A stretch of 64,000 bases of DNA. Origin: Dictyostelium discoideum. Taxonomy: Eukaryota. The stretch lies in assembly GCA_000004695.1 (NCBI GenBank), contig CM000150.2, positions 3,104,001-3,168,000 on the forward strand, in the 5' to 3' direction. The notes under the pieces are model-generated. The model ran no database searches. It was not told where the DNA came from and saw only the letters and a program-made list of their open reading frames with translations. Shown here piece after piece: positions 32,926-40,837 of this stretch (position 1 is the first letter of the stretch; each line of letters opens with the position of its first letter). The translations under genes and the position numbers were made by a program.

Positions 32926-37488
<4,563 letters not shown>

Positions 37489-37821: not shown

Positions 37822-39060
37822 TTATTTGAGAGCGTAAACATCCTCTGCATTAATTTTACCATTTAGAGGTGTTGAACAATAAATACAAATTTGGTCATTT
37901 GAAAATAGATTTTTGATCCAAGGGAATTGGTATTCTTGTGATGAGAACTCAAATGTTTCATTGTCAACAATAGCTTCATCTGGTTGCTCTTTTATATCCT
38001 CGCCAGCAAGTACCAATGATTTTGAACAACAAAAATCGCAATTTAATGTTTTTGGAGAACTTAACAATAATAAAGTTCTTGAACATCTTTCTAAAATACT
38101 TTCACATTCTCTGCATTCAATAAATCTTTCAATTGTACCTTCTGAAAAATTAAATTCTATTTTACATAAAATTATTTAATATTAGTAATTGGTTATTATT
38201 GTAATGTTTAAACAAATATTTAATTTACCTGCTAAGCAATAGAAACAATGATCAGTTATAGGTTTAGTTTCACCTTTACTAACTATTTTCATTATTTTAT
38301 TGTAAATATTTAAATATTTTTCTCCATCAATTCCTTTTAAGTGATGAGCCATTAATGAGAGAGAAATTCTTTGGTAATCTTCAAGTGGTGCAATTTTATC
38401 CTTCTGTTCGAAATATCTATTAAATTCTTTTAAACATTCAGAAATATAGTTTATATTTATATAATCTTTATAATAATTAATTTTATCTTCCATTTCTTTT
38501 GAAATTATATCTTTTGATTTTTTCTATTTTTATATTTAAATAATGATGATTAGTAATGTGTTAATTTAATGAGAAATTGGGGGTGGGTGAGTGAGTTAGT
38601 GAGTGAGTGAGTGAGTATGATATTACCTTTAAAATATAAAATAATTTAATAACGAATCTACATCTAGTTACTAAAGCATTTGAATTAAACCCTTTATCAT
38701 TATCATCTGGACATATTTCATTTATAAACTCTAAAATACTCTCACCTGGATAAACATTTATATAAATAAAATAATCCCAAAGATCCTTTGACTTTTCTCT
38801 TTCAAATTCTATTTAAAATTTTAAAAAAATTAAGATTTATTAGTAAAACTAAAAATAAAAAAAATAATAAAAAACCATATGTTTGATTAATTTTAAACTT
38901 ACTATTTAAGAATGCTTGTTTAAATGACTGAAAATTGAATGGTGGATCTTTATATGCTAAATTTAATCTTGATGTTACTGATTTAGAATGATACATTGTA
39001 ATACCTGGTGGTAAACTAATAAATAAAATTAAAAAATTGTTAATAATTATTTTTTCTTTT

Positions 39061-39104
<44 letters not shown>

Positions 39105-40155
39105 TTTTAATTTTAAATTTTCTTACTTTTCTAAATAAACAGTAATTAATTTATTTGGTGATGTGACCAATGAATAAATACCCAAACCTTTATCATCATC
39201 CTTTGGTAAATAATTTACAGAGGTTGGTTGTAAACTCTCTTGAGTGAGTAATGAATTCCAAAAATTTGGTTGAATTTTAAAATCAATGATATTGTTATCC
39301 AATGATGATGTTGAAAAATGATAATAATCTGAAAATGAAACACAAGTTATAGTTGCTCTATGTTTTAAAAATAAACATGATAATTGTTTTTTTTCGAAAT
39401 TATATAAATAAAAACCCATTCCTTTGCAAATAAATAAATATGTTTCACCATTTTCCTTTTTTTAAAAAAAAAAAATATATATATGAGTATATAATTAATT
39501 ATCATTATTAAAAATTGTATATAAAATAGATACATACATTTGGTGGTGACCATTCTAAAAGTGTTGCAACATTATAATCTTTTTCAATGATATTATATAA
39601 AAGTGTTACATTTCCATCACTATCTACTTTACTTAAATTTACACTACCATCACCAAGTGAAATTGCAATTATATTTTGATTTTGACTTGTGATTGAATTT
39701 TGTTTATTATTATTATTATTACTATTTTTATTATTATTATTAATTGTTGTTGAAGAAGATGGTTTCCATTTAATTGCAGTCACCCAATCATCATATTCAT
39801 CAAAACATAAAAATGATATATTATCACTTGTAAATGCATCTGATGATGAAGTTGGAATAGTACACTTAAAAAAAATGATACCTCTTTTTGTGCCTAGTGA
39901 TAATAAAGTTATAATTGAACCATTTGTATTGGTGGAATTGGATTTTTTACCTGTATTTTCAATATTTCCATCACTCATAATTGGTGACCAATCCATAGAT
40001 TGTATATCCATCCATTCAGTTCTTTTTTTATACTCTAAATTTGATACTGATTCAGATTGACGAACCAATGGTTTCGGATTAATATTTCTATCACTAAAAT
40101 AAATAAATTAATTTATATGGTATTAGTACTATCACTTTATAAAAAATGTATAGAA

Positions 40156-40186
<31 letters not shown>

Positions 40187-40648
40187 ATGAATAATAATTA
40201 CATCCAAACACTATCATTTTCATCAATTTTTTCATTAATTTTTGGATCAATTAAAATTTGATAAGTTAAATCAGATAATGAAGATACTTTCTCCCAAAAG
40301 TAATTACTTGAAGTTGAAGAGATATATGGTGATTTAAATAGAAAAACATGACCATTGCTCGTTGATGTTGCTAATAATTGAAATCCACCACCTAATGATG
40401 GGAAAAAACATTCTGATAAACTTCCTTTTAAAAAATCAACTTCTGCTTGACTGGTTGCATGTTTTCTAATGATTGGAAATACTGTTGCTTGTGGTTCTCC
40501 TAATTTATAATCATTATAATATTCTTCTTTTGGTATCATTTTAACACTCTCTTTTTTTAATAATCCATTTTTAAAATTCTAATTAAATAAGAAATAATAA
40601 TAATAATATTATTAATAATAAACGTTAATTAATATTTCTTTAAGTTGC

Positions 40649-40699
<51 letters not shown>

Positions 40700-40837
40700 T
40701 TTATCTTTTTATTTACTTACTAAAATGAAAATTGCATTTTTTTGAACAATTGCAAGTTTATTTGATGATTTGGAATAACTTGAGCAATTGAATGTTGATG
40801 AAGATGCTTGTCTTAAACTTAATAAGTCATGAAGCAT
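37822..40837 (-). CDS. Eight-exon gene of about 762 aa: 40721..40837, 40202..40578, 39538..40093, 39127..39455, 38903..39015, 38627..38808, 38229..38523, 37822..38141. It has a WD-like/beta-propeller-like N-terminal region and a Cys-rich C-terminus (CFYC...C.EC...CDFCC...CIYC). It may be a TFIIIC subunit (GTF3C4/TFIIIC90-like, with a zinc-ribbon tail); that identification is tentative.
   Basis: Six minus-strand ORF-track entries (40198..40539, 39508..40068, 39123..39419, 38802..38996, 38182..38493, 37822..38067) are connected by introns with GTAAGT, GTAATT, GTATGT, GTAAGA, GTAATA and GTAAAT donors and poly-T/AG acceptors. Phases 0,2,0,2,1,0,1 all close and the total is 2289 nt. Exon 1 (MLHDLLSLRQASSSTFNCSSYSKSS...) is not in the ORF track. 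Confidence 0.6.

Follow-up and report, generated by a model that had tools for sequence, protein, structure and literature searches.

We analyzed a 64,000-nucleotide (nt) stretch of Dictyostelium discoideum DNA (contig CM000150.2, positions 3,104,001 to 3,168,000 of the forward strand; hereafter the window) and found that its minus strand from 40837 to 37822 very likely carries one 8-exon gene, whose 767-amino-acid (aa) product would be the D. discoideum orthologue of TFIIIC90 (human GTF3C4, yeast tau60), which belongs as a standard subunit to the tauB module of TFIIIC, an RNA polymerase III (Pol III) factor that turns on tRNA genes. The window is very AT-rich (guanine-cytosine (GC) fraction 0.14-0.35) and contains Dictyostelium-like open reading frames (ORFs) with polyglutamine (polyQ) and polyasparagine (polyN) tracts, and the program-made ORF list breaks the gene into separate short ORFs. 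A sequence-only reading had proposed that six of these fragments form a single 8-exon gene, and this was borne out by a transcript contig (L001, 1,574 nt, run SRR24091721, carrying a 405-aa product), a three-species comparison, codon-position bias and an identical GenBank model. In a scripted assembly of the minus strand, the eight exons join into a single open frame. All introns are bounded by GT..AG and are 72-142 nt long; their GC fraction is 0.07-0.13 except for intron 6 at 0.30, and that of the exons is 0.26. The parts of the gene, in positions of the window, are as follows.

Exon 1, 40837-40721, minus strand: ATG at 40837, codons 1-39, ends in phase 0; donor GTAAGT kept in three species, substitutions 2/0/7 and 2/0/6 over the codon positions, N-terminus identical across database models.
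Exon 2, 40578-40202, minus strand: 377 nt, outside the transcript contig; placed by conserved splice sites, a sole indel of 3 nt and codon-position bias.
Exon 3, 40093-39538, minus strand: 556 nt; its 3' part and the exon 3-exon 4 junction lie in the transcript contig.
Exon 4, 39455-39127, minus strand: 329 nt; exact exon 3-exon 4 and exon 4-exon 5 40-mers in the transcript contig, zero indels in three species.
Exon 5, 39015-38903, minus strand: 113 nt; here the predicted propeller gives way to the helical domain, on junction, comparative and structure-model evidence.
Exon 6, 38808-38627, minus strand: 182 nt; ends ...FYILK in phase 0, with the exon 6-exon 7 40-mer in the transcript contig.
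Intron 6, 38626-38524, minus strand: 103 nt, GC 0.30, with a CTCA-rich tract; missing from the transcript contig.
Exon 7, 38523-38229, minus strand: 295 nt; starts KKSKDIISKE-MEDKINYY and holds the first CxxC (C651, C654).
Exon 8, 38156-37822, minus strand: 335 nt including the stop codon; holds C671, C674, C681, C696, C699, C700, C747 and C750.
Cys-rich module, 38247-37876, minus strand: residues 651-750, split by intron 7; delimited by a sub-threshold Pfam match, conserved Cys columns and a profile alignment (hhalign).
Start of the 3' untranslated region (an A-run), 37821-37793, minus strand: within the transcript contig.

When mapped to the window, L001 was collinear with exons 3-8 and skipped every intron. 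It contained the exact 20+20-nt junctions of exon 3 to exon 4, exon 4 to exon 5, exon 5 to exon 6, exon 6 to exon 7 and exon 7 to exon 8, and none of the intron 30-mers sought in it was present. The junctions thus answer a check proposed with the sequence-only reading: L001 splices exon 6 to exon 7, against a separate gene starting at 38493. The ORF beginning MEDKINYY is accordingly internal to the gene, as had been proposed; it belongs to exon 7, which is entered in phase 0 through ATATAAAAATAG and has ten in-frame codons (KKSKDIISKE) ahead of the ATG. Three coding-position differences separate L001 from the window over 1,446 nt, and the contig therefore comes from another isolate. Its origin in a processed pseudogene is unlikely, as its intact ORF speaks against this, and the comparative evidence would be unaffected either way. 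The first 96 nt of L001 are AT-rich, of low complexity and not collinear with exon 3; they probably reflect a de Bruijn-graph join through an AAT repeat and not biology.

The corresponding loci of D. citrinum (L002), D. dimigraforme (L003) and D. purpureum (L004) were compared with the window. All seven donors and all seven acceptors are kept in place in D. citrinum and D. dimigraforme. In these two species the exons are 86-97% identical to those of D. discoideum and differ in net length by multiples of 3, and the introns are 49-82% identical with freely varying lengths (intron 6: 103 nt in D. discoideum, 322 nt in D. citrinum and 142 nt in D. dimigraforme). Substitutions at codon positions 1/2/3 numbered 36/27/95 against D. 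citrinum and 63/40/128 against D. dimigraforme (chi-square p ~1e-12), and the introns were flat in this respect. The third-position bias was seen in both comparisons for exons 1 and 2, which lie beyond the reach of L001; the lone exon without it was the 113-nt exon 5 against D. citrinum (0/2/1), with three changes in all. As judged from substitution patterns, purifying selection acts on every exon. D. purpureum has the same phase-0 junction of exons 6 and 7 (...YYILK/GTATTG...CTATAG/RKLKDF...), followed by the Cys exon. Consistently, a GenBank model from another D. discoideum strain (KAM9941192.1) is identical to the 767-aa product, and models of 760-769 aa are available for D. citrinum, D. 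dimigraforme and two more strains. An Asn-rich insert in exon 3, variable in length between strains and species, explains why the full-length models range from 763 to 769 aa.

In the AX4 reference annotation, this locus appears as two genes, DDB_G0270578 with 571 aa and DDB_G0269612 with 199 aa. The latter is the Cys-rich tail, exactly MEDKINYY...ALK, with the ATG at 38493 in exon 7 as its annotated start, and it is this tail that had passed for a separate small gene, as the sequence-only reading had claimed. Wherever they overlap with the window, both AX4 products and the 767-aa model agree with it at every residue. For 547 residues the 571-aa model is the same as the 767-aa protein, and it then ends in NIILTHSLTNSLTHPQFLIKLTHY, which is translated from intron 6. 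We could reproduce this ending only by excising 38661-38627, the final 35 nt of exon 6, and translating intron 6, and L001 keeps these 35 nt. The AX4 C-terminus was also considered as real coding sequence and was rejected, as it needs a 35-nt pseudo-intron and the length of intron 6 is unconserved. On the minus strand, intron 6 (38524-38626) contains the CTCA-rich tract CTCACTCACTCACTCACTAACTCACTCACCCACCCCC.

A genuine pair of genes would comprise a 571-aa WD40 protein ending in intron 6 and an independently transcribed 199-aa Cys-rich protein from the ATG at 38493. Such a pair is what AX4 now annotates, what D. purpureum likewise shows and what a tail-only D. citrinum model (P0010) would fit, and the in-frame ATG is indeed present; we nevertheless regard it as extremely improbable. 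The 571-aa model requires the pseudo-intron together with translation of an unconserved CTCA-rich tract (103/322/142 nt), L001 contradicts two genes by retaining the 35 nt and joining exon 6 to exon 7, and homologues in at least eight other amoebozoan genera are single polypeptides that are collinear over the boundary. A predicted helical domain, with helices at 537-557 and 564-595, also bridges the false boundary. One gene has been wrongly parted at intron 6 into DDB_G0270578 and DDB_G0269612. The split error recurs across annotation pipelines: D. purpureum is divided into 542-aa and 194-aa models (L004 3001-5692), the latter with a weak precomputed match to zf-TFIIIC (PF12660), and D. citrinum has only the tail (P0010, ACTFIU_007294, 197 aa) in one assembly and a full 769-aa model in another. 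Both D. discoideum halves are labelled 'uncharacterized', and the named dictyostelid relatives are annotated as one gene.

The last intron has two in-frame acceptors 15 nt apart, and the length of the product depends on which is used: 38156 (AAAATAG) gives 767 aa and 38141 (TTTCAG) gives 762 aa. The segment between them is as follows.

Segment between the acceptors, 38156-38142, minus strand: 15 nt, AATTTAATTTTTCAG, coding for FNFSE; kept in three species.

The conceptual protein of the sequence-only reading was 762 aa long, which needs acceptor 38141; this length has to be corrected, as 38156 is the acceptor in the transcript contig and in all full-length database models. L001 holds the exon 7-exon 8 junction at 38156, and the junction to 38141 is not among its 40-mers. 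The sequence AEFN(F/I)SE (AEFNFSEGT in D. discoideum) is present in all five full-length Dictyostelium models, which therefore use 38156, and the 15-nt segment shows no indels among the three species, with differences only at positions 5 and 9. A 762-aa protein from 38141 as the main product is improbable, although TTTCAG is a good acceptor, in frame and conserved in three species, because the sole transcript contig lacks its junction and uses 38156, and the five models and the indel-free segment all keep the 15 nt. The 38141 acceptor could give a minor isoform without FNFSE, which lies between the first two Cys pairs.

Having established the gene model, we turned to the family to which its product belongs. 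The sequence-only reading had tentatively compared the protein to the TFIIIC 90-kDa subunit, and this likeness was upheld by relatives that pass the Pfam thresholds, by profile alignments including one to human GTF3C4 (8cli_B), and by structural comparison with Foldseek. An exhaustive HMMER search with a dictyostelid-only profile against 1.84 billion representatives returned 20 proteins; a word-indexed profile search for homologues had added P0009 only, a protein that was known already. Full-length single-gene orthologues were found in Polysphondylium, Tieghemostelium, Heterostelium and Acytostelium (E 1e-117 to 1e-60), and more distant amoebozoan relatives in Physarum, Protostelium, Balamuthia and Ceratiomyxa (E 5.5e-24 to 1.4e-10), where they are single ORFs in transcriptomes (Physarum, Protostelium and Ceratiomyxa) or in a genome annotation (Balamuthia). 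One HMMER alignment covers both the N-terminal and the C-terminal part in P0012-P0016 and P0019-P0022 (P0021 is unattributed), and in P0018 the best stretch is N-terminal only. The TFIIIC_delta (PF12657) cutoff of 27 bits was passed by P0016 (42.7 bits; profile E 1e-60), P0018 (43.4), P0019 (50.6) and P0020 (38.2). The last three pass zf-TFIIIC as well (35-43 bits), as do P0021 and P0022. In UniRef, Heterostelium album PPL_08412, Polysphondylium violaceum CYY_003318 and Tieghemostelium lacteum DLAC_05308, three of the four dictyostelid orthologues, bear the label 'Transcription factor IIIC 90kDa subunit N-terminal domain-containing protein', and the D. purpureum half-gene is likewise named after this domain.

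Profile-to-profile comparison linked these proteins to the dictyostelid ones. The post-propeller halves of two disjoint sets, the dictyostelid set (A5) and the Pfam-passing set (A6), were aligned by hhalign with a probability of 99.9% (E 3.6e-31, 266 columns), and the alignment passes straight over the false gene boundary. A 14-sequence family profile matched 8cli_B with E 1.6e-11 in one stretch of 444 positions (81-524), and generic WD40 proteins aligned to the same profile in repeat-length pieces only. These comparisons show that the whole polypeptide is homologous to proteins with both TFIIIC_delta and zf-TFIIIC, the propeller region to the former domain and the post-propeller half to the latter. 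The propeller, the helical domain and the zinc module lie in one polypeptide in this order, as seen from L001 (exons 3-8), the HMMER alignments and the family alignment.

The protein structure was predicted by AlphaFold2 with the 14-sequence alignment and gave a predicted local distance difference test score (pLDDT) of 71.5 and a predicted template modelling score (pTM) of 0.68; with only four sequences aligned, the prediction was unusable (pLDDT 44.9). The 14-sequence model consists of beta strands at 19-478, helices at 485-636 and a small beta-rich module at 645-753 (P0001 numbering, to which 3 is added for window protein numbering after the Asn-rich loop). In the window protein, the predicted domains are thus a WD40 propeller at about 19-480, a helical domain at about 488-639 and a Cys module at 651-750. 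In a Foldseek search against the PDB, 8cli_B (TFIIIC90) ranked first (E 1.6e-20, template modelling (TM) score 0.56/0.60), followed at ranks 2-5 by the yeast TFIIIC/tauB entries 9gc3_C, 2j04_A, 2j04_C and 8ffz_F (E 2e-11 to 3e-10, TM 0.38-0.45), and unrelated WD40 proteins started at 4e-9, below all TFIIIC entries. On the minus strand of exon 3 (39690-39760), the Asn-rich low-complexity insert NNNNKNSNNNNNKQNSITSQNQN falls in a predicted propeller loop with pLDDT <50.

C651-x2-C654, C671 (with C674), R680-C681-SRT, C696-x2-C699 and C747-x2-C750 fall in columns that are invariant, or nearly so, among the 14 aligned family sequences. The C-terminal domain therefore displays a conserved ligand pattern for two putative zinc sites, and the Cys module is homologous to zf-TFIIIC as well as to the pair of zinc fingers at the C-terminus of human TFIIIC90, which have been described (PMC11811891). 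The beta-propeller-like N-terminal half and C-terminal multi-Cys module read from the letters alone were thus both recovered, in the AlphaFold model, the Foldseek matches and the Cys columns.

Several results weigh against the assignment of a single TFIIIC90 gene. On direct Pfam scanning, zf-TFIIIC (profile positions 5-96 of 98) reached 16.3-17.8 bits with E 0.0036-0.01 and a cutoff of 23, and no TFIIIC_delta match at E<=1 was found in the 762- or 767-aa protein or in the D. purpureum, D. dimigraforme and P0007 orthologues; the propeller part gave weak generic WD40 matches only, and P0007 reached 22.5 bits for zf-TFIIIC. Of the two Pfam families named in the sequence-only reading, zf-TFIIIC was thus seen below its cutoff and TFIIIC_delta was not matched. 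A phmmer search of PDB sequences with the whole protein gave no GTF3C4, only a chance p300 match (E 1.4), and a 5-sequence dictyostelid profile against the PDB returned neither GTF3C4 nor anything relevant. The dictyostelid-only C-terminal profile did not find GTF3C4 in the PDB either, and the link of the tail to the human protein therefore rests on the intermediates and the predicted fold. The transcript support is one assembled contig that is non-collinear over its first 96 nt and leaves the exon 1-exon 2 and exon 2-exon 3 junctions uncovered.

In human TFIIIC, the WD40 domains of TFIIIC90 and TFIIIC110 unite the two subunits in the tauB core, and there is a rigid scaffold from which the B box is read by the winged-helix domains (PMC11811891; also PMC12409998). 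In yeast, the place of TFIIIC90 in this core is taken by tau60, which is paired with tau91 (PMC11811891, PMC12409998). By analogy with the human cryo-electron microscopy structure, the propeller of the Dictyostelium protein would pair with that of the TFIIIC110 orthologue to form a rigid tauB core, and the zinc module would clamp the first winged-helix domain (WH1) of the TFIIIC220 orthologue and so hold the platform for the B box of tRNA genes (PMC11811891). Since the matching parts and the conserved Cys residues are kept, we propose that the protein may serve as the tauB scaffold subunit of Dictyostelium TFIIIC, a role taken from the human structure. A literature search by gene ID did not find DDB_G0270578 or DDB_G0269612 among the searchable papers, and gtf3c5 is the one TFIIIC gene that a recent Dictyostelium paper names (PMC13063481).

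The Dictyostelium protein differs from human TFIIIC90/GTF3C4 (8CLI chain B; PF12657 and PF12660) in several respects: the identity is 11-14%, the direct Pfam cutoffs are failed and Asn-rich low-complexity inserts are carried in loops. Where most relatives show C-x-x-G-H (or G-C), Dictyostelium has C-R-E-C, and a His ligand has therefore probably been replaced by Cys. Human TFIIIC90 also has a reported histone acetyltransferase activity. The yeast protein tau60 (Tfc8; 2J04 A/C, 9GC3 C and 8FFZ F) is more remote in the structural comparison, with the lower TM scores of 0.38-0.45; we take 9gc3_C, 2j04_A/C and 8ffz_F to be tau60 from their chain lengths of 585-588 residues. Yeast tau60 is not known to carry the zf-TFIIIC zinc module, and the Dictyostelium protein is therefore of the human/amoebozoan type. 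The dictyostelid and other amoebozoan orthologues are full-length and collinear with it (E 1e-117 to 1e-13), and the gene that is split in AX4 and D. purpureum is one gene there.

The locus might also be one gene for a diverged paralogue or repurposed relative with WD40 and zinc-ribbon parts that no longer acts in TFIIIC. We consider this hardly probable: all proteins from the exhaustive search form one family, in which D. discoideum has one cluster and no further candidate, the architecture is collinear from end to end with TFIIIC90-type proteins that pass the Pfam cutoffs, the columns of the conserved Cys and the RCSRT motif are kept, and the top five Foldseek matches are all TFIIIC entries. 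A TFIIIC90 orthologue acting in TFIIIC remains the preferred reading. An additional layer of regulation is conceivable, and very improbable: beside the full-length mRNA, a promoter inside or close to intron 6, which is unusually GC-rich and varies in length, might give a stand-alone 199-aa zinc module, or a regulated 38141 isoform might have a shortened zinc knuckle, and either could compete for TFIIIC220 WH1. This idea is founded solely on the presence of the ATG, the conservation of the second acceptor and the earlier annotations. If it were true, the 199-aa module or the 38141 isoform could tune transcription by Pol III or the targeting of tRNA genes by TRE and DGLT-A retrotransposons.

As the orthologue of a general transcription factor subunit that is already known, the gene is unremarkable and encodes an expected housekeeping protein, and the result is an annotation repair; the merged model is already in GenBank for other strains, where it is unnamed. 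With this repair, two 'uncharacterized' AX4 genes become one, and D. discoideum gains a named tauB subunit of TFIIIC. Tagging, knock-down and interaction studies need the full-length model, as a half-gene construct would sever the helical domain. The DGLT-A retrotransposon targets tRNA genes. TFIIIC at B boxes is central to the choice of tRNA genes for integration by the TRE5-A retrotransposon (PMC3159450). The gene model can thus be used in work on Pol III and on retrotransposon targeting in Dictyostelium.

With regard to the neighborhood, ARAGORN detected no tRNA genes in the 64-kb window (1-64000). A convergent neighbor on the plus strand (32926-37488) encodes a 1,520-aa polyQ/polyN-rich protein with a C-terminal RhoGEF domain (PF00621, E 3e-42) and a PH domain, and the stop codons of the two convergent genes are separated by 333 base pairs. 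The D. citrinum, D. dimigraforme and D. purpureum loci also have a large convergent gene downstream.

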